From Mytilus californianus (lineage: Eukaryota), in assembly GCF_021869535.1 (NCBI RefSeq), contig NW_026262745.1, forward strand, positions 40,982,001 through 41,046,000: a stretch of DNA of 64,000 bases, written 5' to 3'. Below are positions 3,099 through 40,477 of the stretch, in pieces. The position numbers were made by a program, and so were the translations under genes. The first letter of the stretch is position 1. The number at the start of each line of letters is the position of its first letter. Below the pieces are notes generated by a model. It saw only the letters and a program-made list of their open reading frames with translations. It ran no database searches and was not told where the DNA came from.

Positions 3099-4799
3099 TT
3101 ACATGTGTTTAGAACTAACAACAAATAAATGTCAATTATCTTTATAAAGCTTACGGGTAAATGCATCTTCAAATAATACTTTACATCAAAGGTTACAATA
3201 AAATTAAATTTCTACGGTTTTTTTCTTGTCTGGTTTAATAACATCGTTTTACAGTTTCATTAATTCACCGAGAATTAAGTAAATTTTAACTTACTTTCTA
3301 TGGGAGGTAAATAACTAATGACAAATCTTTTAGCTTTAATTCCAAATTTAAGAGCATTTAAACTAAGTAAAACTACATTTAATGACAGAACATTAGTATC
3401 TGAAAGAATCGAATCAATACGTAACAAAGCTCAGTATTGTGAGTATTAAAAAAACAGTGCTGTTTATTCAGTGGTATTTGTAAATTTTTGTCATATATCA
3501 AACGTTGTCTCGACAACATCGAAAAAAAACTTGAAATGTCTAATATGTCGTCAGAATACAAACAAAACGAAGCTCAAATCTCAAAGCTGGTCGTAAAAAA
3601 AGACTTAATTCCTTGGTCAGTGGCGTGCTTAAAGAATATACTGCATCTTGCCATAGGATTTGATTTTGTCATTAAATCTTTTAAAAGATTGTAGAAATTT
3701 TTGTCAAATACGTCCCTAGATTCTGATTTGAACATACATCGTGTTTATAAGGATTTACAGAATAAGTACTTTTGACATTTTGTTGGATTTTTATAGTTTA
3801 ATCGAAGTGTTGCCATAATCTTTCAGTACATGTTTTGCTTACGTTATCTGAAATTAACTGAATTAACCTATAAAAAAAAACACACATCATGTTAACGGGT
3901 ACAATATATCAAATGTGGAAGAATGCGTTATTTTCAGAATATATTTTGTTAATATGTATGACTTGGGAACGTCTCTTTCCATCGGAATTATCAACGTCAA
4001 GCATGCTGATAAGTAATGTGAACTCTTCTAAGATACACTCTTTTCTTTCAAAACACTTGTAAGGCAGTGACGAAAATTGGTATCGTTTATGTTGTTGGAA
4101 TTTTTGGTCGTTTTTCTTATTTATTATTCTATTTTATAAGTTGAGTCCCATTACATTGCATAATCTAATTGGTGTCATAAACCCCATTACGTTTAATCAT
4201 ATTTTTTTTTAAATAATGGCGTACCAATGATGCAACTTAATTTCTGAGTAAGGTCCTTAATACGAATTTGGCATTCAATTACAGATCTTTAGTAAAATGT
4301 TTTACTACAAAAACATACAATTGACATACCTATAATCTCAATACATTTTGGTGACCTGTTACCTTCTTTAGAATGATTCTACGCAATGGTTTGAATGATG
4401 GTTGACTATTTGAAGCACGAAAAGTATTTATTAATCTGCCTCCTTAAATAGAAATGCTTGATGTTAACTTACCATGAGACATTTTTAAACACATCCATCT
4501 GATTGTTCATAGTCTGAATTGTTCTGTGATTTTCCTAGGTTTAATACAAATACATGAACATGAATGTTCGGTTTGTCCTGATTCAGTTACCTAATTTGAA
4601 GGCATTTTGTTGATATTTTAAAATATTATGAACGTAAATACAATATTCAAATAATAGACAATAAAAACTGATTCCGTTAGAAAAAATGTTCCATAATCAT
4701 ACAAATAACCAGAATAGTTTCTGAAAATAACATATTCTTCCACAGTTGTTATATGTATCCATGTTATCATTTATACACTGATTAACAGTTCAATATATA

Positions 4800-5069
4800 C
4801 AGGAATCTGATGTTCAGTAGTTGTCGTTTGTTGATGTGGTTCATAAGTGTTTCTCGTTTCTCGTTTTTATATAGATTAGACCTTTGGTTTTTCCGTTTGA
4901 ATGGTTTTACACTAGTAATTTTTGGGGCCCTTTATAGCTTGCTGTTCGGTGTGAGCCAAGACTCCGTGTTGAAGACCGTACTTTGACCTGTAATGGTTTA
5001 CTTTGATAAATTTTGACTTAGATGGAGAGTTGTCTCATTGGCACTCATACCACATCTTCTTATATCTAT
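4800..5069 (+). mobile_element. SINE-like dispersed repeat (family 1b)
   Basis: High similarity to 22528-22789; ends ctcattggcactcataccacatcttcttatatcta. Confidence 0.8.
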
Positions 5070-5504
5070 AAACAGTCTGGTTATAATGATGTAAAACATA
5101 AATGAATGCTCCTCAATATAAAACACGTTTTCAACAATGTGTGCTTATTTTAGTGGACTTGTAAAATCGGGAATACAACAACCTTATGTTGAATCTAAAC
5201 ATCCGATTCAGGAATATTTAAGCTTCGGTTGTAAAATATTCAAACCATCAGCTAAGAATATCAGATAATCATTTTAAGTACCTTTTTTATAAATTTGGCG
5301 TACAGATTTAAACAATCTTACATATCGTGACTTACATCTAGAAAGTGTTGATAAGGGTTGGTTAAAAAAAAAACTTACGTCAAAAGAGATGATTTTAGTT
5401 TCCCAATTGTGAACTTTGGGTTTCTATGAAACAACATGGCAGATGCGCCTGCATATGTAATAAAGGTCTCCCAGTTGACTCGATATTCCAGACTTGTATT
5501 TCCT

Positions 5505-5681
5505 GCGTTTCCTATATTTGGCAAACTTTTAGGAATTTTTGGTCCTCAATGCTCTTCAACTTCGTAATTTATTTGGCCTTTTTAACTTTTTTTTAAACGA
5601 GCATCACTGATGAGTCTTTTGTAGACGAAACGCGTGTCTGGCGCAAATACAAAATTTTAATCCTGGTATCTATGATGAGTT
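5505..5681 (+). mobile_element. Family A retrozyme-like insertion with 8-bp TSD inside a Penelope-like RT remnant
   Basis: TSD TATTTCCT at 5497-5504 and 5682-5689. Removing the insert and one TSD copy restores gtatttcctatcatg, as in the uninterrupted copy near 9074. Confidence 0.85.
5601..5644 (+). ncRNA. Minimal type I hammerhead ribozyme motif, family A (near intact)
   Basis: gcatca CTGATGA gtct-tttgt-agac GAAAC gcgt GTC tggcgc; predicted cleavage after C5638. Confidence 0.88.
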
Positions 5682-6829
5682 TATTTCCTATCATGATTTC
5701 CTCGACAGAGTGTCGCTGCTTATAAGAAAGTTATTAAACCATGAGTTCCAATTGGTGAAGTTGAAGTAACCGCTTCGAAAATATAACAGACACCATCACG
5801 AGTTGGTTGAACTTTATGGAATTTCTGTTTGGAAGATGACGATGAATATGGTCCTATGTTCGTCTTTTATTGCTCGAATGTCACATCGCCGAGTTAATCT
5901 TCATGAGCAACACATCTCTTTGATCTTTGCCAAGTCTCAAGCTAATACAAACACACAGTTCAAGCATTTTTTGCTACCGTATAATGTTCCTGATCGTGAA
6001 ATTTGAAAACAAGTTTGGATAGAATGAAAGGTGAGACACGTAGACGTTGTTGACCTTTTTGACGCTTCTGGTTTCACTCAGTAAATCCATTTCGGCTAAG
6101 TGCGATTTTTAAGCAAAATATTGTCCTATAAAATAGTCACGTGCATGATTGTCATGAAAGTTGTCTTATTGAAGGGAAGTTATATTTTGTACAAAAATAG
6201 CATTCAATTAAAATTCCGGTCCTAAGCTATTGCGAATGTCCGTATCATATTGCAAGGCTCAAATTTTTTGAACAAATGTTAATAATAACAAAGGAGAACA
6301 GCACCTTATATATGCTTCTGTAACTTATATTATAATTTACCAAACTGTTTTTTACATGAAGGCATGAATTTGAAACTGATTTAGGTTCAATACCTTTATG
6401 TTTGTAGCGGGATAAATATTTTTATTAAACCGTTTTATTCCACTTTTCTTTTTTATTTGTTCTGAATATTTTTTACACTGATTTATATTAAGTGATTTTT
6501 ACGCTTCAAGCAAATACAATTAATTGAAAAAGACTTTTAACAACGTCGTTTAATTATTTTCATTACGTTTGAGGTGATCATTTGATACGTTTTGTATTAA
6601 AGATAACGTGTCTTAGTATTACAAAACTAATGCACCGTCAGGATTCCACAATTGAATTTTTCAATTTTGTAATTTTCAAATGCTTTCAGGGTTTTCTGAT
6701 GGTAAAGGTGGATGAACTCTTGGCACAGATTCTAAGCGAAATATTATGTCATATTTTACGTTTTTTATTGGTAGATATGTAGTATTTCATTGCATGAAAG
6801 ATACGATGTAAAAACCCATCACATATATA

Positions 6830-18097: not shown

Positions 18098-21000
18098 CTA
18101 AAAAGAAAGATAATCATTTACAATATTGTATTCAATAATTGTACAAATAGAAAGTGAGAAAAAACTCATCACGGATACCAGGCTTGTAATTGTGAACGCC
18201 AGACACGCGTTTTGTCTACAAAAGACTCATCAGAGACGCTCGAATCAAAAATATTAAACGGCAGTAAAATACAGTACGAAAATAGCATTTCAGTGAATTT
18301 ATCATACCATCAAAATGACGATAACAAGTTTGCTATGTACGACGTAGATCACAGCAATACATTGACTCAGTTATATGTCAAGTCTCTAATATGTAAAAAC
18401 CAAACCTTATCATGTATACGTTAAATTCAAAGTTGTGCATTAGTAAAATACTGATTGGAGATGTTTTGATTTACTCACTTTCAAACAAGGATGAAGCAAA
18501 TCAACATTTAATTTTGTTTCGTTGTTAAAAAGTGCGAGTCTGCCTAGATATATGAATACTTGACCAGAACACATACCTTTTATATTGTTGAATACTGGCG
18601 TTGACCTGTTGCAATTTTGAGATTGCTAATTCTTTCTCTTTTGTATCAAGTCCGCTAACTGAAATTGATCCAATTGAACCTCTACCATGTTTAAGGTGAA
18701 CTGATCCTTCAAGTTGAGTAACTGTGCCGTGCATTTTCCCAATTTCGTTTGAAATATCTGTAATAGCTGTTCTTAATTGATGAATTTCTGATTCCTTTTC
18801 CTTAATTATCCTGAAAGAACCATAGATTTTAAAAAACAGAAATTTACGTGACCGATGGTTTATTAGTTTTGTGATTCAAATACCAATCCGCTGTTGTGTG
18901 ATACATTTATATAACTTATCAACGTATCTTATAGGAGAAACACAACAGTTGTCACATGTGTAGCAGGATATGTATGCTAAGTCTTTCGGAAAACCTGAGA
19001 TCGCCGCTAGTTTTTGGTGAAGTAAGTGTTGCTCAATCTTATGTTTTCCATATTGTGTTTTGTAAAATCTTTTGGGTTTGTTTTTTTTTTGGGGTTTTTT
19101 TTGCCAAGGCGTTGCAAATTTGTCATCGACTTATGAGTTTTTAATATAACTTTGTATCATGAAAAAAATATAAAAAGTAAAAATGTATAGACTTCCCACC
19201 CATGAATTCCCTTTTGCATGATTCTTAAATGGAGTGGTACTTTATTACTTAATCCCAGAAAGCCTCTTTAAGCTACACGATTTAACAATGTTTGGTCGAA
19301 AAAACGCATAAAACGAGTATATAACATAATGTTGCATTTACAAGACAAGAGTACATGTCGATATTTTTCGTTCTTTTTTATCAACATAGTATAATTTCCT
19401 ACATAAGTTTTCTGAAAACGATACATACGACTGAAGGCTATCATTACGATCCTGTAAAGTCTGTGCTTCATCCTCAATGCTTGAAATGTTTTTCATGAGT
19501 TCGTCTACACTCATCGCACGTCCGGGTGATCCTGCTGCTTCATCTCCGCTTTCTTCATCTTTTTCTGAAATTGTCGTCATCTCTCTATCATCGTCATCAC
19601 CGCCACATAACTTTTTGTGTAAACTGATTATGGCCGTTTTCAGTCGTGTTACTCCATCCATTATCATTTGTTCAAGAAGGTCTTTTTCTTTCAACGTCCT
19701 GAAATAAATGTATCTTATAATGTACAAAAGAAAAACTAAGAACTTTCTTTCAGTAACTGCAAACATGCTTTGATGAAGCGCCAATATTTTCTTTCAATAC
19801 TGGTATGACTAAACTAAGTGATTGATACACATTTTCAACTGATTTCTTATTTTTTTCACTGATCCACATAAAGAATGATCGACTTGCATAACCAATTTAA
19901 ATCTGCTTGGTGTTTATGTGTCTGTGCAAAATAAGGCATTTTGTTAATTGTTGGCGCTATTTTTACATTTTAATCTCCATTGGAAGTGTGGTTCTGGTTT
20001 CAGAAATCGATTGCATTTTTGGAAGAACCTTTTGTAAAAACTTTAGATGATAAAGTATGTCTTTGGTTTGTTTTCTCATCGGCGTTACTCAAAGTAGTCT
20101 TTATATAATAAGATTGTATATATCATCTAACATTGTTATTGACATAATAAAAAAATCTTCAAATGCTTTGTTTATAACAAAAATTAAACCACTTTACTTT
20201 TCGTTTTTTTCTAAACAGAAATAGTTGACAATCATTAATGTGATGTATAGAAAAGCATATAGCTGATAATTAAATTCTTCAAAAAACTATTTAAGTCAAA
20301 GAAAAATACATGGTAAATATTGCTAGAAATATTGTACATCTCAAGTAAATCTGCATACTGTGCGACATCGGAAAATATAGTTCTTCACTTACTTCTCAAG
20401 ACTGACTTGAAGTTCACTTTCTATTTCTGATATTTTGCCCTCCATTCCTTTCTTCTGAGTTCTGAATTTTTGTTCAAGTCTCGCGACTTGTTTATCTTTG
20501 GCCCTCGATGATATTGGCTGTGTTCCTTTGATTCTTTAAAAGAAAGGATACTGATGTTTTGGTTATCGAGTGAAATCAATAAACACGAATTAATACGCTG
20601 TACTAATAGGTGTAGTAATGTTTCAAATACACCACCAGCATCAATATATATTGGTGTATTTTGCGTTGTTGTCGTTTACAATTATATCACATTTTCACAT
20701 TTTTCAGTTGATATGCTTTAAGCAATGTTGTTCTAACTTTCAACGATATTCATTGTAATTACATTATTGGATACAATGGAAGGCATTGAACATCAATAAA
20801 GAGTTTATAGTGTAGCTAAATGTGCTGTTGAAAAAAAATATCAATTAAGAATAACATCCTACCTGTCATGATCTTTCCGCAAATCTTGCATGGATTTTCG
20901 TAGTACCTGGTTTTCGTCTGATAACCTATGTAAAAAATATGTATATGTTATCTTTCACGTTTATATGTAATATTTGCTAAAGCCGTCTAATTCATTTCCT

Positions 21001-27000: not shown

Positions 27001-29036
27001 CAGAAATTATCAGAAAGTTTAAATTCATACGCATAATATTTAAAAAGCGAGTCGGAAGATACCAAAGGGACATTCAAACTCATCAGTCGGAAACAAACTG
27101 ACAACAGCATGGCAAAAAAACGAAAAAAAAAGACAACAAGACAAACAACAGTACACAAAACACAACATAGAAAATTCAAGACAAAAAAACACGAACCCCA
27201 TCAAAAACCGGATTAAGGTGGCCATTACAGGTTGTTTTTATACTTCTGAACCATCGAGACCTTCAGAATTTCTGTACTAGAAAAGTCACCTGTATAACGA
27301 ATCATGTAAACTACCTAAATCTATGGTAGATTGTTATGAATAAAAGGAGACGGGAGTAGAAGTCAGTGAGACAGCAACAACAAAAAAAGAAAGATCTGAA
27401 GGTCATCATAGTACGGTTTTCAACAATACACACGTGTCTGTTCAATGAATATAAAACTAAGATGTGGTATGATTGCAAGATACTAACTAAAGGACGAGAA
27501 TGTGAACAACTATAGGACACCGTCTGTCGTTCAACAATGAGTAAAACCCATATCATATAGTAAGCTCTAAAATTCATAGGCATTTTAAAATGTGAATCAG
27601 TTCATAAAAGAAAATCAACGACATGGTTTATGATAAAAACAAGAAACAAAAATAGATAAGGTCGACAGCAACCAACGACTCCCACTGGATTACAGACTTC
27701 TTCAGGACAGGCACATAAACAACATAGGGGTTTAAAATACTTGTGCTTCATCTTCCCCTAACATTTGACAGTGGAGTAAAACACAATATAAAAATGAATT
27801 GGAAAAGATCGATCGGAAATATGTATGTAAATTGAAAATATTTGAAACTTTTCTTTAAAATTAAATAAAGATGGATTAGTATATCTCTACAAATGTAAGT
27901 ACATTTTGTAGGTACTAACAACTCATTATTTATTTTTTGTCGACTAAAGTATTTAAAACAATAATTGTGCATAAAATAAGGAAGAATATAAAGGGAAAAA
28001 AACTTTGGAAATTTGAGTAAATGTTAAATTCAAATCTTCTAGTAAATGCCCGAATAGTTATATGGCCTAATTAGTATTTAATTGATTAGTGGAAGGGTAT
28101 TGTTTTAATTTGGAACATTTCCATTTTACTATTGTCTTGTTGACTAGTGTTTCATTCTATTACCCCGAGTGCACATGATGAAATGTGATTGTATAATATA
28201 TTAACAGAAGAATGTAGTATAAGTCAATGAGACAGCACCCAAACGACAAGAACATACCAATATACATTTGTACATCTGGAGGTCAATATGGTCTTCAATA
28301 ACAAAATGGTTTCTGACCATTGAATTGCAATGATGATATAACTCACATTTAAAAGAAATCTTAAGACATTTCGATATGTGGTTGGAATTCATTTATTTCA
28401 AGCGTAAAAAAGATGCCTTTTAATGAATTTGTCACAATAGTGTCGAATATAGAATTGGAAACAAGTCAACAGATTTTATCATTAAAACCTACAATATCAT
28501 CAGTTAACTGTGGAATTAAAAAAAAACATCTGATATAAACAATCCACTTGATAGTCAGAGTTAAAACTGGAAAATATATTTATTTGAATGTGTCATATGT
28601 TAAATCATGAATGCCCCTCATTTGCTATTGAGTCATCGGTTTCTATTTTACTTTTAAAAAAATCAGGAACATTCGTTTTTAATACAACATACTAGTTCAG
28701 TTGTTTTTACATAAGGAAATGCCTGTACCAAGTCAGGAATATGACAGTTGTTTTTCACTCATTCGATGTGTTTGAACTTTTGATTTTGCCATTTGATAAG
28801 GGACTTTCCGTTTTGAATTTTCCTTGGAGTTCGGTATTTTAGTTATTTTACTTTTTGTAACATGTAAATGAATGGTTCAGTATAAGTTTATTATTTAAAT
28901 GTAGATGTATGAAAACAAGAACGATCATTTTGAAATTAATAAACATCAAAATCTGACTAACCTTTGAAGATGTTGAAAGCTTGGACAGCCTACTGTTATC
29001 ATGTAGAAGTAAAAAATTATGTTTTGATTCTGCCAT
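17845..29036 (-). CDS. Spliced gene for an uncharacterised coiled-coil protein, 10 coding exons, 1677 nt = 558 aa plus stop
   Basis: Exons 29036-28962, 26314-26186, 25254-25123, 24191-24070, 21610-21353, 20925-20863, 20533-20393, 19698-19429, 18810-18577, 18097-17845. All have GT..AG introns with matching phases (0,0,0,2,2,2,2,2,2) and no internal stop. K/E/Q/L-rich heptad-like segments; family not recognised. The first exon is the least certain. Confidence 0.85.
18160..18280 (-). repeat. Family A hammerhead repeat (intronic)
   Basis: HHR at 18196-18239 on minus: CTGATGA gtct-tttgt-agac AAAAC gcgt GTC tggcgt (G12 mutated). Confidence 0.8.
18577..18810 (-). CDS. Coding exon (IIKEKESEIHQLR...IQQYKR)
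   Basis: tctttcag| ... AG|gtatgt, 234 nt, phase 2/2. Confidence 0.9.
18939..19142 (+). mobile_element. Solo Penelope-like 3'-end element
   Basis: tgtcacatgtgtagcaggat...cctgagatc...tgtcatcgacttatgagttt, homologous to 9330-9530. Confidence 0.65.
19429..19698 (-). CDS. Coding exon (TLKEKDLLEQM...DRNDSLQS)
   Basis: tatttcag| ... |gtatgt, 270 nt, phase 2/2; lies within ORF-track 19338..19784. Confidence 0.9.
20393..20533 (-). CDS. Coding exon (IKGTQPISSRAKD...QVSLEK)
   Basis: tcttttaaag| ... |gtaagt, 141 nt, phase 2/2. Confidence 0.88.
20863..20925 (-). CDS. Coding exon (LSDENQVLRKSMQDLRKDHDR)
   Basis: tttacatag| ... AG|gtagga, 63 nt, phase 2/2. Confidence 0.88.
21042..21180 (-). repeat. Family A hammerhead repeat (intronic)
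   Basis: HHR at 21076-21119 on minus: GTGATGA gtct-tttgt-agag GAAAC gagc GTC tggcgt (C3 mutated). Confidence 0.8.
21353..21610 (-). CDS. Coding exon (RYAATVHIEDV...HTEIMR)
   Basis: ttcttttag| ... AG|gtaact, 258 nt, phase 2/2. Confidence 0.9.
22180..22840 (-). mobile_element. Penelope-like 3'-end element split by a SINE-like insertion
   Basis: 22180-22429 and 22795-22840 rejoin to gatgtcacaatcgaggaaaagaggacggga (compare 56313-56345). Confidence 0.65.
22430..22789 (+). mobile_element. SINE-like repeat (family 1b) with 5-bp TSD
   Basis: ATGTC at 22425-22429 and 22790-22794; carries the conserved domain ...cctgtcctaagtcagga. Confidence 0.8.
24070..24191 (-). CDS. Coding exon (SPSGKPQPLLD...TKPPA)
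   Basis: tttttgtag| ... |gtaagt, 122 nt, phase 0/2. Confidence 0.9.
24471..24680 (-). mobile_element. Solo Penelope-like 3'-end element
   Basis: gaagataccaag...acgacaccatgg...acaaccccactaaaaccggg...ctcaggacggg. Confidence 0.6.
25123..25254 (-). CDS. Coding exon (IQNDEGSALEVK...KKEFLS)
   Basis: ttttgcag| ... |gtaagt, 132 nt, phase 0/0. Confidence 0.9.
26186..26314 (-). CDS. Coding exon (MANYKSKVQQLQ...QEAVDK)
   Basis: Acceptor ttgttttag|ATG, donor AAG|gtttga, 129 nt, phase 0/0. Confidence 0.85.
26529..26550 (+). promoter_or_regulatory. IRF-E/ISRE-like motif, triple GAAA
   Basis: aaccGAAAaccGAAAagtGAAA matches the IRF consensus G(A)AAASYGAAA twice; function untested. Confidence 0.35.
27042..27211 (-). 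mobile_element. Solo Penelope-like 3'-end element
   Basis: ggaagataccaaagggacattcaaactcatcagtcg...acacgaaccccatcaaaaaccgg. Confidence 0.75.
28717..28856 (+). mobile_element. SINE-like repeat (family 2), 5'-truncated, in intron 1
   Basis: Near-identical to 10056-10196. Confidence 0.8.
28962..29036 (-). CDS. Candidate first coding exon (MAESKHNFLLLHDNSRLSKLSTSSK)
   Basis: caaaATGG start context, donor AAG|GTTAGT, phase 0. Confidence 0.55.
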
Positions 29037-31886: not shown

Positions 31887-32783
31887 TAGAACTCTTTTCT
31901 CTTATTTTTATATTACTTTTTTGAAAATGTAGCTATTTTTGTATTTTCAATTTCAGCATCGGAGATCCTTGAGGCATATTTATGACTATATGTCTATAGA
32001 GTAAGGATCTGATAATGTAACAGTTTGAATACGTATATATATTACACACTTTACAAAAAGACTGAGTCTAAATATATATTTAGAATGCATCGTTATACAA
32101 ATAAGGTTAGAAGGTTTGATTGCCAATGAGACAGCTATCCATCAGATAAGAAATAAAGTGGAAGGAAACAACTATAGGTTGCCTTTTTTCAAATCAAAGT
32201 TTACCTTCGTTGTTGTCTCATACTATGAATAAACGGAAATGTGCATGGAATATAAATGAATGAAACAGCAATCCAACGACACAAATGTATACTCTGATAG
32301 CATCAGTGTATCTTATTTCTTAGATGAATCAACTTAGAAACCATACAAGAGGAGTAAGAAGTGTAATGTATATCTTTATCCTTGGTAAAAACCCCTTGAA
32401 ACAAATAAAAATAGAAAAGACATCATAGACATAACGGATCTCCTGTTCTTGGCGATCAAAAACTGGTATAAAATCTTATTCCAGTCATAATAAATTAATA
32501 CAATACTTGAACTTGAGTGTATTCCAATATTAATTTTGGTCTTAATGATCTAATCGCTTGAAGCGAAGTATATGTAAAGTATGTACTTTGATGAGTTAAG
32601 TCTTTTTCAACTCCTTTTACAGATTGATTTTGTGTTGTGCTGTTAAATCACTTTGGATGTTTGGGTGTGGGGTGATCGTTGGTTTCCTCATTTGAATCAT
32701 GTTTTTTACAAGTACAGCTAGGAGATCCGATGGAACAATATACCATCCGCCTGTGATTTTTTTATTATTATTATTTTTTTTTT

Positions 32784-32807
32784 GGGGGGGGGGTGGGGGG
32801 TGGGGGG
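32784..32807 (+). repeat. G-run tract (G10-T-G6-T-G6), potential G-quadruplex
   Basis: Seen directly, about 115 bp left of the Ngaro end. Confidence 0.6.
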
Positions 32808-32921
32808 TACGGTGTTGTTACTTTGTAACTGTTGCTTCGTTTATGTAAACCTTAACTTTATATCTCTTCAATTTTAATGTATATCCCTGATTAACAAACT
32901 TTGTCTTGAACTTCAATGAAT

Positions 32922-33193
32922 TAAATGGTAGATTATAGAATTGTATAATCATGGTTTATAGACGAGTTGATTATTCCCAGCTGTTAAATGGTGCTGATGA
33001 CTTTTCTTAACCCGTTTCTGCATAACCCGTTACTCGACATTAAATATCGGTTAAGAGGTCACAAAACATATAGGTTAGATAAAGTTGCGTGCTTGCAGTT
33101 TAATAAGAAATGTGTCACGTGAAATACAAGTTGAATCACAGTCTTAGTAATTGCTCCTCGTGGCAACAGCTTTTAAAACTTATTCTCAAAACA
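32922..33193 (+). repeat. Ngaro direct repeat A1 (272 bp)
   Basis: taaatggtagattatag...tattctcaaaaca recurs at 38460-38731 (offset 5538); no mismatch seen by eye. Confidence 0.95.
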
Positions 33194-33214
33194 CTGTTTA
33201 CAAAGATATAAGTT

Positions 33215-34591
33215 ATGCCTCCAAGTAAAAAACGGTTTCCGACGAAACGGAAATCCCGTTTCCAGCCATATAGTACTGAAACTGTTGTTACAAAAACTAA
33301 TTCTGAGAGAACAAAAACCGAAATGGTGGACGAACTGTCTAAAATTGGTTTCAAAGTGCCTACAAATCTGACTTTAAACGTTGTTAAAACTCTGTATACA
33401 GAAAACATTGGTAACAAAAACAGTGATGCTCGCGTAGAAGCCATCGATAATATTTTAAGTGCAACAGACAGTTTTCCATCTGATACGCAAACTGCTTCAA
33501 CAGAGACTCAAAACCGTGAAAGCATTGACATTACTTCTTCTGCTACGGAAAATGTTAACACAAATATATTGGTGGCTGCTTTTAACACTATGTCACAATG
33601 CGTGAACGGCCTTCAGAAATCTGTCGATACCCTGATGACAGAGAAGCTGTATGATACTAGCAAACCGTATAATCTACATCAATGGTACAATTCCAGTAAT
33701 ACCGCACCGTCGATACAAAACACACCGGATGCGTTAGTTCATGGATTAAATAGAACAGGAGTTCGTTCTGACGATTTTCCCAATGTCGACATAGTTTCTA
33801 CAGCATTACAGAAACAAATAATACAGGGTAAGGACATTAACTTAGCTTCTCTCCTTATTCCTAGTTTCGAGAGTCCCCAGTCACATACCATTTTGGCAGA
33901 CGGTATGGAAATTAATGTAGGGAATAAGCCAGACCCGCGTTTAAATCGACAACTAACCATCCAGGAATTCATAAAGGCCTTCGGAAAATTCAAGCGTGTA
34001 ATGACATCTGCTTTTCCAGGTAGGAGATTTGAATTAGACGCCTACGAGGAGGATATCATAGAGATCAGTAATTTTTACGGTCAGAAGTTCTACGACTACC
34101 ATAAATTGTTTTCAGCAAAAGCCTCGACCCTTCTTCAAGAGAAACAAATTAAAGTCGATTGGAGCAAAAGGGATCGCGACCTGATGATCTTGATAGGTGC
34201 GGGCGTTGAAATAAATATTTGCAAACTTTGTCACATGGTTGACCATGACACAAAATTCTGTCCATTGCAATTATCAGAGAAAAACGTATCTACCCCACAT
34301 CTAACGAAAAATAGCGGTAATTCTGATATTCGTGGTAGGAAGCGTTTTTATCACAACGGAAAAGAAATTTGCAATAATTTCAATAGCATGTCTGGCTGTA
34401 ATAAAGACGGTCGATGCCTTTTCTTACACATGTGCTCCAATTGTCGTAACTATGATCATAGCGTAACCGCCTGTCATCGTCAATCTTCGCATAACGATAG
34501 CGAAAAAAATAGAAAGAACCACGCTTTTAAAAACACTGTTGCTAAGACTGGTACTCCTGCATCAAAGCACAGCTTCGGTTCCGAAAAATGA
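33215..34591 (+). CDS. gag: Ngaro ORF1, Gag-like protein (458 aa)
   Basis: ATG-started ORF right after A1. C-terminal Cys/His clusters CKLCHMVDHDTKFC and CNNFNSMSGCNKDGRCLFLHMCSNCRNYDHSVTAC are typical of DIRS/Ngaro ORF1. The N-terminal ELSKIGFKVP...KTLY resembles a LEM/HeH-like motif (inference). Confidence 0.9.
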   Translation: MPPSKKRFPTKRKSRFQPYSTETVVTKTNSERTKTEMVDELSKIGFKVPTNLTLNVVKTLYTENIGNKNSDARVEAIDNILSATDSFPSDTQTASTETQNRESIDITSSATENVNTNILVAAFNTMSQCVNGLQKSVDTLMTEKLYDTSKPYNLHQWYNSSNTAPSIQNTPDALVHGLNRTGVRSDDFPNVDIVSTALQKQIIQGKDINLASLLIPSFESPQSHTILADGMEINVGNKPDPRLNRQLTIQEFIKAFGKFKRVMTSAFPGRRFELDAYEEDIIEISNFYGQKFYDYHKLFSAKASTLLQEKQIKVDWSKRDRDLMILIGAGVEINICKLCHMVDHDTKFCPLQLSEKNVSTPHLTKNSGNSDIRGRKRFYHNGKEICNNFNSMSGCNKDGRCLFLHMCSNCRNYDHSVTACHRQSSHNDSEKNRKNHAFKNTVAKTGTPASKHSFGSEK

Positions 34592-36223
34592 CTATCAAAT
34601 GTTAACTTCCCCCTACATGCTACTACTCCGATTAACGTAGAAGTATTACAAAATGAACTTAGAAATCACAGTGACAAATCTTTTGTATTTTATTTATGCA
34701 ATGGTTTAAAATATGGTTTTGACACTAAAGTTTCTGTGACTAGTTTACCAACCCTTGAATGTCGTAATAATTTGTCTGCACGATCACAACCGAACGTAGT
34801 AAATGAATTGTTAAGGAAGGAGTGTGAAAATGGTTTTATGTACGGGCCTTTTGATACACTTCCATTTTCAAGTTACCGTGTCAGTCCGTTGGGAGTTGCG
34901 GAAGGAAAATATTCAAAGAAAAAACGACTTATATTGGATTTATCGGCACCTCATCAAAGTGATACTCATTTTAGCATCAATGAATTAATTGACAAAGACA
35001 TCTGCTCTATGTCATACGTTAAGATCGACAACGCTATAGATATTATCCTGAAATACGGAAAAAATTCCTGGTTATGTAAGTACGACATTTCCAATGCATT
35101 CAAAAATTGTCCTATTTTACCTTCACAATGGCCTTTGTTTTGCATTAAATGGGAGGAAAAATATTATTTCTATGTGCGATTAACTTTCGGTTGCCGATCT
35201 AGTCCCATTATATTCGATACTTTGTCACAAGCAATATGTTATATTGCCACAAACAATTACAAGGTCAATAACATTTTACACCTGTTAGACGATTTCTTAA
35301 CTATAGATCCGCCACACGCTGACGGAGAGCGATCAATGGCATTAATGATGATGATTTTTAAACGCTTAAATGTTCCAATAGCGATGCACAAAACTGTTGG
35401 CCCTGTAACGTGTCTTGAATATCTTGGCATCATTCTCGATTCACAAAAAATGGAAGCCCGTTTACCGCAGGAAAAAGTTGATCGAATTTGTGAGTTTATT
35501 TCAAGTATAAGTGTCAAATCCTCTTGTTCTAAGAGAGAAGTTCTACAGCTGCTTGGGCATTTAAATTTTGCCTCAAGAGTTATATTACCGGGCAGGTCAT
35601 TTGTGTCTTATCTAATCAATTTATCAACCAAAGCAAAAGAATTACATCATTATGTGCGTTTAAATAAAGAATGTCGGATAGATCTTGAATTTTGGTTTCG
35701 ATTTCTAAAGAATTGGAATGGAATTAATATGTTTTATAATTCTTCATATATATCTAATTACGATATGGAATTATTCACAGATGCATCGTCAACTATAGGT
35801 TTTGGTGGATATTTTGGTGGAAAGTGGTTTTATTCTTCATGGCCGACCGAAATAAAAAACATCACAAACAGTAAACATTCAATGGCATTTCTTGAATTGT
35901 ACCCAATCGTTGTGGCAGCTGTTTTATGGGGCGCCTCATGGAAAACAAAAAAAGTGTTATTTTGGTCTGATAATATGTCTACAGTCGAGATTATAAGGAA
36001 AGGCAGATCAAAATGTTTGTATATTATGAAGTTAATGAGAAAATTAACATGGTGCGCGTGTACAAACAACTTCTTTTTTAGTGCAAAACACGTGCCAGGT
36101 TTACAAAACGATATAAGTGATGCCTTATCTCGATTTCAGATACAACGATTCAGAGCCCTGGCACCAGATGCAGACCCCTTTCCGGAACCGTGTCCCAAAA
36201 TCTCAGATGTAATATGGTGTTAA
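34592..36223 (+). CDS. pol: Ngaro ORF2, reverse transcriptase plus RNase H (open from the gag stop, no upstream ATG)
   Basis: The frame is open from 34592 (LSNVNFPLHATTPINVEVLQNEL...NGLKYGFD). RT motifs: RLILDLS, KYDISNAFK, LTFGCRSSP, HLLDDFL. RNase H motifs: LFTDAS, FLELYPI, FWSDNMSTV, HVPGLQNDISDALSR. The ORF-track start at 34736 is a GTG; the first in-frame ATG is 34838. Confidence 0.93.
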   Translation, partial: LSNVNFPLHATTPINVEVLQNELRNHSDKSFVFYLCNGLKYGFDTKVSVTSLPTLECRNNLSARSQPNVVNELLRKECENGFMYGPFDTLPFSSYRVSPLGVAEGKYSKKKRLILDLSAPHQSDTHFSINELIDKDICSMSYVKIDNAIDIILKYGKNSWLCKYDISNAFKNCPILPSQWPLFCIKWEEKYYFYVRLTFGCRSSPIIFDTLSQAICYIATNNYKVNNILHLLDDFLTIDPPHADGERSMALMMMIFKRLNVPIAMHKTVGPVTCLEYLGIILDSQKMEARLPQEKVDRICEFISSISVKSSCSKREVLQLLGHLNFASRVILPGRSFVSYLINLSTKAKELHHYVRLNKECRIDLEFWFRFLKNWNGINMFYNSSYISNYDMELFTDASSTIGFGGYFGGKWFYSSWPTEIKNITNSKHSMAFLELYPIVVAAVLWGASWKTKKVLFWSDNMSTVEIIRKGRSKCLYIMKLMRKLTWCACTNNFFFSAKHVPGLQNDISDALSRFQIQRFRALAPDADPFPEPCPKISDVIWC

Positions 36224-37218
36224 AACAAACTGTCGAACAACTATGGACGACATCTATATCTAAAAGGACTAAGGACGTGTATGATATTGGTTTCATGCAT
36301 TTTAAGAGATATTTACTGTTAAATAATGTGACATTTACAAATAATTTGGCCCCAGTTTCGGAAGAAATCCTCATATATTTTGTTGCCCATTGTCAAACAG
36401 TTCTGAAACTTCATTATTCTACCATTAAACTTTATCTCTGTGGAATCAGGTACAACTACTTGAAGGAAAATTGTAGTGATCCCTTAGAACTATATAACGG
36501 CAAACCATTTCCTAGGCTTACATTGATCTTAAATTCTGTCAAACGATCTCAAAATCAAAACAAGAGAGTAAGGCTACCTATCACTTTTGATATTCTTGAA
36601 CAAATTATAAAGAGATTACGAAAGGGAGTTTTTTCAAAGTTCATTGACCTCATGATAGAAACAGCTAGCGTGATTTCTTTCTTTGGCTTTCTCCGATGCG
36701 GAGAAATAACTGTTATCAAATCCGAACAATTTGAACCTGCAATTAATTTATGTATATCAGACATTTCATTCACAGACAATGTTGCTAACTTTCACTTGAA
36801 ACAGTCAAAAACTGATCCATTCCGTAAGGGTATAGATATTCAGCTACACAAAATTAATAGTCATATTTGTCCTTATCGTGTTTTAAAAAGATATTTAGAG
36901 ATCAGGAAAACGTTTATGTCGTCTTATCAAAACACTGACCCTCTTTTTGTATCAATTGGCAATTTAGCCATGGAAAGAGAATTCTTTATAACAAAAGTCA
37001 GACATGTTCTTGAGTTATGCGGTTATGATCCTAAAAACTTTTCAGGTCATTCATTTAGAATAGGTGCTGGAACCGCAGCTGGTCAGGCTAACATAGAGGA
37101 TCACATGATCAAAACATTAGGTCGTTGGTCTTCAGATTGCTATGTGCGTTATATTCGCACTCAACCAACCTCTATAAAACATGCACAACAGCAGCTTGCT
37201 GAATCTATTTATCATTGA
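36214..37218 (+). CDS. Ngaro ORF3, tyrosine recombinase
   Basis: ATG at 36214 overlaps the end of ORF2. Catalytic motifs FFGFLRCGE (R), LKQSKTDPF (K), GHSFRIGA (HxxR) and LGRWSSDCYVRY (W, Y) are all intact. Confidence 0.95.
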   Translation: MVLKQTVEQLWTTSISKRTKDVYDIGFMHFKRYLLLNNVTFTNNLAPVSEEILIYFVAHCQTVLKLHYSTIKLYLCGIRYNYLKENCSDPLELYNGKPFPRLTLILNSVKRSQNQNKRVRLPITFDILEQIIKRLRKGVFSKFIDLMIETASVISFFGFLRCGEITVIKSEQFEPAINLCISDISFTDNVANFHLKQSKTDPFRKGIDIQLHKINSHICPYRVLKRYLEIRKTFMSSYQNTDPLFVSIGNLAMEREFFITKVRHVLELCGYDPKNFSGHSFRIGAGTAAGQANIEDHMIKTLGRWSSDCYVRYIRTQPTSIKHAQQQLAESIYH

Positions 37219-37420
37219 TTATATTATAGTCAACTTCGATTTTATTGACAGGAGAACTGCATGGTTGCTTTATATGTATATTTTGTTTCTTTTGTTTACC
37301 TTATTATTGTGTTATTCGTTGACTTATTGAAGGTGATCCCGGGGGATTCCTCATTCTAAATACTTGGGGTCACTCAGACTCATCTGATTTCTCATCACTA
37401 TTTCGTCAGAGTTTCTTGGC

Positions 37421-38463
37421 ACCTTTTCAAATATTTCACTTATCATTCATAATTTTCATTCATTTTCCAAGCATTTTTCATTTAACATCTCCAACCTCAA
37501 CTCAACACCTTAAAACATTGTAGCCCACCGTCACGCGGGGGCTGGTCCACTGCCACGCATGGGCCGTCAGATGAAGCTTCGCTTTGTCATTCTTTTGTCA
37601 GTTGTGTTGTTCAAGTTGAGTGTAGTGGCTTGTCAGCTGGTGTACTTTCCACGAAAGAATCGCTTCCTGACAAAGTCCTGGAGCAAAATTATTCGTCAGA
37701 TAGTTGAGTGATTTCCCAAGGCCAAACAATTTAATATGTTTTATATATTTAGTACAGAAAATACGTTTTCATTTTATTTAGTGTAATATTCATAATAAAT
37801 ATATTACATTTACACCGTATTGTTAGTATCAATGGTTCCGTGACAAAGTTATTATTGAATCTACAGTCTGCTAACACTACACTAAGATAACATTCACCAG
37901 ACAGGAACCTTTAACAAATTTGACCTTAAGATTTGTAACAGATGTTAAAGTTTTAAAACAGTGACGCTAATAAGCATATCGACACAGAATAATTTCGCAG
38001 ATTGATGTCCTGCGAAGATTCTCATACTAACTGATTGATTGATAATGGGAATAAAATAATTATTACAGAGACTGCAATGTCAAATTCCTCACAAATCATA
38101 TTGTGCTATTACACGTGTATAGCAAACTGCATAACATGAGACTTATGGTTTAATCGCCATTGAAACCAGCATCACAGTTTGAATACAACCTTTAATATTA
38201 AATTTTACATGATTTCACTTCGACTATTGAACTATATTTAGATAAACAAGATTATCATGTGGAAAACTGGCGTCATTTTCAGATATAAATTTATCGATTT
38301 ATTAATTGGATTGGATGCTTACATGGTTGATTGGTTGTTGGTGTAGTTTCAGTGGCAAATATTTCATGCATATACACGACGGGAAAAACATAAAATATAT
38401 TTTGAAACAGAATTTCGACTATCAGTTTTACACAAACACACACTGGAAAAACGAATATATAAA
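37421..38463 (+). repeat. Ngaro direct repeat B1 (1043 bp)
   Basis: accttttcaaatatttcac...acgaatatataaa repeats at 38803-39845 (offset 1382); appears identical by eye. Confidence 0.95.
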
Positions 38464-38731
38464 TGGTAGATTATAGAATTGTATAATCATGGTTTATAGA
38501 CGAGTTGATTATTCCCAGCTGTTAAATGGTGCTGATGACTTTTCTTAACCCGTTTCTGCATAACCCGTTACTCGACATTAAATATCGGTTAAGAGGTCAC
38601 AAAACATATAGGTTAGATAAAGTTGCGTGCTTGCAGTTTAATAAGAAATGTGTCACGTGAAATACAAGTTGAATCACAGTCTTAGTAATTGCTCCTCGTG
38701 GCAACAGCTTTTAAAACTTATTCTCAAAACA
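38460..38731 (+). repeat. Ngaro direct repeat A2
   Basis: Copy of 32922-33193 abutting B1, sharing the 4 nt TAAA. Confidence 0.95.
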
Positions 38732-38802
38732 ACCTCCATCCTACCCCACCGCATGATTCACCTTCAATATGTCAATGACAAGGGAAAGAACTCAACAAGT
38801 GA

Positions 38803-39845
38803 ACCTTTTCAAATATTTCACTTATCATTCATAATTTTCATTCATTTTCCAAGCATTTTTCATTTAACATCTCCAACCTCAACTCAACACCTTAAAACAT
38901 TGTAGCCCACCGTCACGCGGGGGCTGGTCCACTGCCACGCATGGGCCGTCAGATGAAGCTTCGCTTTGTCATTCTTTTGTCAGTTGTGTTGTTCAAGTTG
39001 AGTGTAGTGGCTTGTCAGCTGGTGTACTTTCCACGAAAGAATCGCTTCCTGACAAAGTCCTGGAGCAAAATTATTCGTCAGATAGTTGAGTGATTTCCCA
39101 AGGCCAAACAATTTAATATGTTTTATATATTTAGTACAGAAAATACGTTTTCATTTTATTTAGTGTAATATTCATAATAAATATATTACATTTACACCGT
39201 ATTGTTAGTATCAATGGTTCCGTGACAAAGTTATTATTGAATCTACAGTCTGCTAACACTACACTAAGATAACATTCACCAGACAGGAACCTTTAACAAA
39301 TTTGACCTTAAGATTTGTAACAGATGTTAAAGTTTTAAAACAGTGACGCTAATAAGCATATCGACACAGAATAATTTCGCAGATTGATGTCCTGCGAAGA
39401 TTCTCATACTAACTGATTGATTGATAATGGGAATAAAATAATTATTACAGAGACTGCAATGTCAAATTCCTCACAAATCATATTGTGCTATTACACGTGT
39501 ATAGCAAACTGCATAACATGAGACTTATGGTTTAATCGCCATTGAAACCAGCATCACAGTTTGAATACAACCTTTAATATTAAATTTTACATGATTTCAC
39601 TTCGACTATTGAACTATATTTAGATAAACAAGATTATCATGTGGAAAACTGGCGTCATTTTCAGATATAAATTTATCGATTTATTAATTGGATTGGATGC
39701 TTACATGGTTGATTGGTTGTTGGTGTAGTTTCAGTGGCAAATATTTCATGCATATACACGACGGGAAAAACATAAAATATATTTTGAAACAGAATTTCGA
39801 CTATCAGTTTTACACAAACACACACTGGAAAAACGAATATATAAA
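38803..39845 (+). repeat. Ngaro direct repeat B2
   Basis: Copy of 37421-38463, preceded by a unique 71-bp spacer (38732-38802). Confidence 0.95.
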
Positions 39846-40477
39846 CTGTGAAAATCGTACTTGGATACAGTCTCTGTGTAAATAGCTGGTAAACAATGTA
39901 AAACTGTACTTGACTTAGACCATAAATCACCGAAACCAAATTATATTTATTTGTTTATTTTTGTTTATTGTCTCTACACTCGAAAAATTATAAATGCTTA
40001 TTGATTATAATTCACTGCTCCGAAACATATTAACAAACAATAATTTAAAGTGTAAGAGCTTAAATTTCATATCATTGACTTTTAAAAAGAACTAACGAGG
40101 TATGTCAGCAAAATAGGCATTATACGTTTCTCTTGTCAGGAAAAGAAACATGGAGTTTTTACAGCGATTTCACAAGTTTGGATTTACGACTTTTTTAAAT
40201 TTAATGTATATTTGTATTTGTCTTTTAAAAAAAGAATATGCAGCATATCCTTCATAAAATACCTTCAACAGTATAATTATAAGCATTGATATATTTTTCT
40301 TTCAACAAATTTAAACATACGAGTTAATGATTCAATATCAACTACATGTATTATAATTACGTTTCAACATTTACAAGATGAACATTAACTTTCACAGTAT
40401 ATGTTTAATTTATGGATTGCATATTTAAAAAAAAAGTAAAAAATTGTTTCGTAAGATTTATTCTCTATGATTCTCAT

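Follow-up and report, generated by a model that had tools for sequence, protein, structure and literature searches.

An in-frame UGA separates ORF1 from Pol in a Mytilus Ngaro element

The 64,000-nt stretch of Mytilus californianus DNA analyzed here (contig NW_026262745.1, positions 40,982,001 to 41,046,000; hereafter the window) harbors on its forward strand an intact Ngaro-type retrotransposon, which spans positions 32922–39845, is bounded by split direct repeats and carries three open reading frames (ORFs): ORF1, a Pol frame for reverse transcriptase (RT) plus RNase H, and a tyrosine recombinase (YR). ORF1 starts with an ATG at 33215 and ends with a TGA at 34589–34591, after which the same frame is free of stops from 34592 up to a TAA at 36221–36223. 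Translation of 33215–36223 yields 1003 positions with stops at 459 and 1003 only, confirming the initial annotation, which had placed ORF1 and RT/RNase H in one phase with a lone TGA between them. Readthrough of this codon, which lies in the context gaa aaa TGA CTA tca aat, would give an ORF1-RT-RNase H product of 1002 amino acids. The two other frames contain many stops across the junction. A −1 frameshift was considered for the window and rejected: an A_AAA_AAT at 34504–34510 lies in the ORF1 frame, yet the −1 frame closes at once, and the heptamer is probably not functional.

The first in-frame ATG after the stop is found at 34838, 82 codons downstream, the same count as reported before. 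An open stretch of this length has a chance of about 0.003 at the base composition of the window. Moreover, Pol residues 10–82 share 37–52% identity with 17 of 17 relatives, picked to span the junction types, as compared to 42–58% for residues 83–543; residues 1–9 are not conserved. In an alignment of 39 Pol proteins, seven columns upstream of Met83 are invariant. Since the block is conserved in relatives, it is, judged from this conservation, real coding sequence, in agreement with its earlier description as a probably translated block that resembles the N-terminus of DIRS/Ngaro RT ORFs, and a start at ATG 34838 would drop it.

We consider it quite probable that Pol is expressed by programmed UGA readthrough of the alphavirus-like type (type II), giving a minor ORF1-Pol fusion. 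A single transcript from repeat A1 would carry ORF1 and Pol. Most ribosomes would terminate at the UGA and release the 458-amino-acid Gag-like ORF1 protein, and a minority, aided by the CUA on the 3′ side and the adenines on the 5′ side, would insert an amino acid at the UGA and continue into the 1002-amino-acid fusion, with readthrough setting a low Pol:ORF1 ratio. That readthrough occurs, at what rate, with which inserted residue and with what role, if any, in packaging, we infer from sequence only. The fusion of about 1002 amino acids proposed in the initial annotation is supported by the evidence described below, including the stop shared with close Mytilus relatives, the DNA of a second element (L004), and ten proteins with a Trp at the junction.

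The stop is shared by Mytilus relatives and by a distant element

Our protein set comprised 385 sequences including our own test translation of the window, 381 of them non-window. Four of them, P0057 (M. edulis) and P0058, P0059 and P0061 (M. coruscus), contain the ORF1 end FGSEK, and each terminates at that residue; apart from the test translation, none of the 385 proteins continues past the FGSEK stop. An M. coruscus gene model, P0129, which lies outside the set of 44 fusion proteins described below, reads RKM-G-L-...-HATTP where its sister ORF1 P0068 terminates at RKM, and points to the same ORF1-Pol frame in a second Mytilus family. ORF1-only proteins with a recognizable zinc knuckle (n = 139) end soon after the knuckle, with Lys (52), Gln (23) and Asn (20) as terminal residues.

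Protein ends reveal neither the stop codon nor the frame of Pol, hence DNA was sought. A scan of bacterial genome contigs (GTDB) gave seven loci, L001–L007, which are animal-type elements in bacterial assemblies and probably represent host or other animal DNA that was carried over. Four of them have ORF1 and Pol at the junction; L003, where the junction is cut off, and L006 and L007, which have no ORF1 match (L007 is also frameshifted), were uninformative. In L004, whose Pol and ORF1 are 50% and 31% identical to those of the window, ORF1 and Pol lie in one frame with a single AAA-TGA-CTA-T between them (stop at L004:4118), followed by a linker that is longer than that of the window and unrelated to it. 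The chance of a TGA followed by CTA is about 0.26 x 0.019. The initial annotation had asked whether other copies carry a sense codon at this position: L004 has TGA-CTA, and close Mytilus relatives stop at the same residue, so that the window stop is, on these comparisons, not private. Elements also appear to lie in tandem or side by side at some loci, with L002 and L003 on one contig and a YR upstream of ORF1 in L002 and L004.

A tryptophan marks the junction in database fusion proteins

Continuous fusions from the zinc knuckle to the conserved Pol block make up 44 of the 381 non-window proteins. Of these, 29 have a Trp-free linker of 15–19 residues, five are gene models or members of the frameshift family, and ten (P0007–P0010, P0017, P0020, P0033, P0049, P0264 and P0368) have a Trp in the linker, in each case at the position of the window's stop. 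The resulting junction reads K/N-W-L: the Trp is followed by Leu in nine of the ten (Gln in the other) and preceded by Lys in seven. Leu follows other Trp residues of the same ten proteins in 10 of 130 cases and accounts for 22 of 200 nearby linker residues; the binomial value for the excess is about 2e-8, which is overstated since the proteins are related, their Pol parts being at most 67% identical except for one pair at 85%. The tails of 140 ORF1-only proteins contain five Trp in 3250 residues and no WL. Moreover, P0009 and P0020 overrun the C-terminal stop column of Pol exactly through a Trp, which would follow from a TGA being translated as Trp. These patterns argue strongly that a gene caller read TGA as Trp in the ten proteins, and that the Trp marks a TGA. 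Such a sample can reveal TGA stops only.

Relatives join ORF1 and Pol in other ways

Among the 29 continuous fusions with a short linker, the named members are from fish, including P0026 from Danio rerio. In L001 and L002, Pol lies in the −1 frame, and an A_AAA_AAC is found at the start of the overlap (L001:2789–2795, L002:4950–4956); it sits in the ORF1 frame, and Pol is open in −1 for at least 300 codons beyond it. No structure stood out downstream of the A_AAA_AAC of either locus. Relatives in which a KK[RLP] motif precedes the Pol block group in one clade with L001 and L002 (support 99), and programmed −1 frameshifting is likely in this sister Ngaro clade. A search of ORF1 tails for slippery sites by the amino acids "KN" proved too loose, since the window's own family was among those flagged, and it does not count as evidence here. 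A fourth arrangement was seen in the more distant relative L005 (Pol 35% identical; 4220–6563), where the Pol frame opens 134 codons early, with an ATG right after the upstream stop, and overlaps ORF1 in another frame.

To place these junctions, we built a quick maximum-likelihood tree of 83 hand-picked Pol sequences, which was rooted at the midpoint, had SH-aLRT as its sole support measure and contained neither a DIRS nor a PAT outgroup. All 13 frameshift-labelled rows lie on one side of a branch (99), and the 15 fused rows are likewise confined to one side of a second branch (93); the frameshift label is based on DNA in two rows and on amino-acid motifs in 11, and 45 of the 83 rows carry no junction label. 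The ten in-frame-stop rows occupy three positions: eight of them form a clade, and the window and L004 each lie elsewhere. This distribution allows a single origin of the in-frame stop with later replacement.

As read from these sequences, one ORF1-Pol fusion would be encoded in three ways: by an in-frame UGA, by a −1 overlap and by a continuous ORF. Because relatives encode it by −1 overlap or as a continuous ORF, the fusion is suggested to be the functional Pol. Of the earlier proposal of a Gag-RT-RNase H fusion, readthrough as the route is supported; the product itself is not new, as it is already normal in the fish relatives. A wider interpretation, which we rate as somewhat more doubtful than not, is that animal Ngaro elements use the whole retroviral repertoire for joining Gag and Pol: a context-only UGA-CUA would be widespread and ancestral in invertebrates, the A_AAA_AAC clade would have replaced it, fish elements would be plainly fused, and many Ngaro copies annotated as "broken" at this junction by a stop or a frameshift would be intact.

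Stop context and evidence against readthrough

The type II readthrough consensus reads either UGA-CUA or UGA-CGG, usually with a 3′ structure, which is general but not universal (PMC3159437). UGA_CUAG is a mammalian motif; in reporters, UGA_CUA gave more readthrough than UGA_C, and changing the G of UGA_CUAG to C more than halved readthrough (PMC9841425). Since the fourth base is not G in our case, a low readthrough rate is expected from these reporters. Of the two contexts named in the initial annotation, UGA-CUA is present in the window and L004; UGA-CUAG is not, the fourth base being U.

Several observations weigh against readthrough, the last of them by favoring a start of Pol on its own. 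In-frame junction DNA comes from two elements only, the window and L004, and both have UGA-CUA-U, not CUAG. The ORF1 stops of the frameshift-type loci L001 and L002 (TAG-CTG, TAG-CAC) are also followed by C, which weakens the argument from the +4 base. Equating Trp with TGA is itself an interpretation, and the Leu after the Trp could be TTA or TTG; the window's own YR stop is TGA-TTA. No shared stimulatory 3′ fold was recovered within 100–150 nt past the stop: the 150 nt that follow it are not folded more stably than shuffled sequences (z −0.29 in the window, −1.23 in L004), and in eight folding windows per element (16 altogether) the best values (−2.09 in the window, −2.56 in L004) fall at different offsets, with no structure common to the two post-stop sequences, which are unalignable. 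Short cassettes without the 3′ structure gave low readthrough of 0.4–2% (PMC3159437). Furthermore, the gag-UGA-pol junction of the Candida albicans element Tca2 did not direct readthrough when placed in a reporter in yeast, and a minor promoter lies within it (PMC2194720).

As to the start of Pol, nine NCBI models from sister families (P0146, P0150, P0156, P0157, P0172, P0183, P0241, P0245 and P0253) begin at a true ATG that lies a few codons upstream of the conserved block. Among 118 newly listed Pol matches, taken from the best 120 of 576, 58 start at positions −4 to 12, 44 later and 16 earlier. In P0143 and P0144, the initial Met falls in the column of the post-stop Leu. Reinitiation may therefore operate in some families.

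Alternative explanations

Together with the Tca2 promoter, these starts are what speaks for the idea that Pol is made separately, by reinitiation after the ORF1 stop, from a non-AUG start or from an internal promoter, with the shared frame as a relic of an ancestral fusion. We regard this as unlikely for the window, where the 82 codons without an in-frame ATG contain a single near-cognate in-frame start within the first 40, the ATT at codon 14. A Met before the conserved block is likewise lacking in 10 of the 12 in-frame elements (the window, L004 and the ten Trp proteins; P0010 and P0264 are the exceptions), and the first Met of P0007 and P0017 lies near Pol positions 161–166, within the RT domain. 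Many of the listed Met starts may be GTG or TTG codons that gene callers write as Met, and the list of 120 was ranked on residues 1–260, which favors complete N-termini. A separate Pol also leaves the Leu after the stop in nine of ten Trp proteins unexplained. The conserved codon after the stop is equally unaccounted for if splicing takes the stop out of the mRNA and links ORF1 with Pol, as in copia, a possibility to which we give little weight. All three close fused models from M. edulis (P0004–P0006) do leave out the junction; their join falls at ATTPIN, with an identical position in two of them, and a pyrimidine-rich stretch follows the stop. However, the window has CAT instead of AG at that join, and its first AG lies 48 nt past the stop, inside the conserved block. 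Models from other families skip at differing places, as gene predictors do at in-frame stops, and we read the M. edulis introns as predictor introns too.

That the TGA is a nonsense mutation, for instance from TGG, in a non-autonomous family, with K-W-L as a real protein motif of the relatives, appears highly improbable. It would fit the Trp in the ten database proteins, the fish relatives without a stop and the finding that DIRS-1 proteins can act in trans (PMC7192593). It is at odds with the presence of this stop in L004 and in proteins of both M. edulis and M. coruscus, with 139 ORF1-only proteins that end shortly past the knuckle, with a downstream Pol that is intact and conserved, and with the two Trp proteins that also read their Pol stop column as Trp. 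Least probable of all, in our view, is insertion of selenocysteine through a selenocysteine insertion sequence (SECIS) element in the long 3′ region. The codon is a UGA, repeat B at the 3′ end is long and mollusc selenoproteomes are large; nevertheless, an Rfam scan of 32900–39900 at E values up to 1 gave no SECIS family match, its sole match in the element being a weak snoRNA model far under the cut-off. The codon occupies a variable-linker position, at which none of the 44 fusions was seen to have a Cys. Programmed readthrough of the UGA is the explanation we favor.

Structure, age and classification of the element

The coordinates of the element are collected in the table below. The order of its repeats, A1-[ORFs]-B1A2B2, corresponds to the split direct repeats of the Ngaro layout (PMC8547959, section 11). 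There are no differences between A1 and A2 or between B1 and B2 across 1315 paired nt, and the copy is very young and was recently inserted. Because the repeat pairs are without differences and the three ORFs are otherwise intact, the element is not decayed. No further copies were found in the window.

Table. Features of the Ngaro-type element and its ORF1-Pol junction (window positions).
Feature	Position	Strand	Remarks
Repeat A1	32922..33193	+	272 nt; left end of the element; 100% identical to A2
ORF1	33215..34591	+	458 amino acids; Gag-like by position
Candidate readthrough signal AAA-TGA-CTA-T	34586..34595	+	L004 has these ten bases at its in-frame junction
Conserved Pol codons before the ATG (82)	34592..34837	+	identity to relatives; seven invariant columns
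Pol frame: reverse transcriptase and RNase H	34592..36223	+	543 codons; no methyltransferase
Tyrosine recombinase (YR) ORF	36214..37218	+	334 amino acids from ATG 36214; −1 relative to Pol; short overlap
Repeat B1	37421..38463	+	1043 nt; 100% identical to B2
Repeat A2	38460..38731	+	shares a TAAA overlap with B1
Repeat B2	38803..39845	+	right end of the element

Pol matches Pfam RVT_1 (E 9.5e-10, Pol residues 142–282) and is over its full length 45–52% identical to proteins labelled RT or ribonuclease H. Its RNase H has no separate Pfam match, and no methyltransferase was detected by Pfam at E values up to 0.05; about 30 residues separate the last RNase H motif from the end of Pol. Ngaro elements lack a methyltransferase domain, unlike DIRS-like and PAT elements (PMC3266345, PMC4157794). 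YR follows RT/RNase H on the same strand, and HSFR (His-x-x-Arg) and a downstream RY, which would hold the catalytic Tyr, can be read in its translation; its Pfam Phage_integrase match (E 2.6e-4, 21.3 bits) is below the curated cut-off of 27.1. Overall, the nearest named proteins are from Mytilus edulis (94–96% identity). Among known elements, the nearest named match is P0026, "TPA_exp: polyprotein [Danio rerio]", to which the window Pol is 48% identical and whose ORF1 is homologous too; we take it to be Ngaro1. By these sequence features, we assign the element to the Ngaro superfamily within the order DIRS.

A TAAA core is common to both ends of the element and to the B1/A2 junction (32922–32925, 38460–38463, 39842–39845), which fits integration of a circular intermediate at TAAA by the recombinase. 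A2 and B2 are separated by a unique 71-nt spacer (38732–38802), and repeat B, at 1043 nt, is long. A G-rich run (32783–32808) lies some 115 nt to the left of the element. The rest of the window contains many short dispersed repeat families, 60–95% identical and in both orientations, e.g., 4864–5069/22586–22791, 18160–18262, 27043–27211 and 28704–28857.

The ORF1 protein and expression of the tyrosine recombinase

ORF1 consists of a helical core, Cys/His zinc knuckles and a variable K/S/T-rich tail that ends at the TGA. The Cys and His residues of the knuckles are invariant in an alignment of 92 sequences. ORF1 has no match in Pfam. A structural model of its core (33749–34483) is confident (mean pLDDT 91.7); a Foldseek search with it against solved structures gave no match at E values up to 0.001, and the best structural match was weak (Z 5.3, root-mean-square deviation 3.9, 82 residues aligned). 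No capsid fold was among the structure matches, which does not exclude one. We therefore call ORF1 Gag-like, a label that refers to its position and its zinc knuckles. Among the 92 homologues, 12 have a HeH/LEM match and four a SAP match, and a protein atlas returned unnamed clusters and one zf-CCCH lead only.

The YR frame is open from 36121, 31 codons before the ATG at 36214; this ATG precedes the stop of Pol by 7 nt. Relative to Pol, (36214−34592) mod 3 = 2, i.e., −1. A YR start that overlaps the end of RT/RNase H in −1 has been described for such elements, and frameshifting suggested (Poulter and Butler 2015, quoted in PMC13003380). L001 and L002 have no ATG at the place matching 36214. 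In view of these missing ATGs, the frame open from 36121 and the published frameshift suggestion, separate synthesis of YR from 36214, as put forward in the initial annotation, found no support.

Novelty and implications

In the full-text literature covered, neither readthrough nor a gag-pol frameshift was found described for Ngaro or DIRS elements, and the earlier statement that no such readthrough is known for YR retrotransposons holds within that scope; Goodwin and Poulter 2004 as well as Poulter and Butler 2015 and Repbase lie outside it and may note an in-frame stop. DIRS and Ngaro are unmentioned in the covered part of a large review of frameshifting (PMC5009743). The candidate novelty is the leaky stop as a route to the fusion, not the fusion product. 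The element family and the recoding signal are both known, their combination was not found described, and the −1 frameshift clade is apparently undescribed as well.

How Pol is expressed in tyrosine-recombinase retrotransposons is largely open in the literature covered, and the conserved UGA-CUA junction, as a short cassette, lends itself to direct reporter assays. If true, our interpretation would add a marine-invertebrate family of natural readthrough signals, seemingly without a 3′ structure. The existence of a −1 slippery sister clade and of a fused form in fish suggests a requirement for Pol to be made joined to ORF1, though these elements have no protease. Elements with such junctions would wrongly be scored as dead, and the introns that gene predictors place over the junction appear to be artifacts.

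Comparison with known systems

In its layout, the element resembles other Ngaro elements: A1-ORFs-B1A2B2, the order ORF1, RT/RNase H and YR, the lack of a methyltransferase and a YR that overlaps the RNase H end in −1. It differs from P0026 and other short-linker elements, in which ORF1 and Pol form a single continuous ORF. Published arrangements vary: Xenopus Ngaro elements have overlapping ORFs (PMC9210276), in contrast to the statement that Ngaro ORFs are usually non-overlapping (PMC3266345), and an amphioxus element has three ORFs in alternate frames (PMC2632668, supplement).

Among retroelements with a stop between gag and pol, Moloney murine leukaemia virus likewise encodes Gag and Pol in a shared frame that one stop interrupts and makes Pol as a minor fusion; it differs by UAG-G, a purine spacer, a pseudoknot, a protease and a DDE integrase (PMC2194720). 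Readthrough of this type (type III) was considered for the window and rejected, as the stop is TGA-C and the bases that follow are not purine-rich; no context or structure like that of the virus was found at the junction. The retrotransposon Tca2 also has gag and pol split by a UGA in frame, but it is a long terminal repeat element with a predicted pseudoknot (PMC2194720); in the Ngaro case, the post-stop codon is common to distant families. The type II systems (alphavirus replicase, tobravirus and furovirus) share with the window the UGA-CUA, the 5′ adenines and the position upstream of a polymerase. In contrast to these RNA viruses, where an extended 3′ stem-loop is usual (PMC3159437) that went undetected here, the window carries the signal in a genomic retrotransposon.

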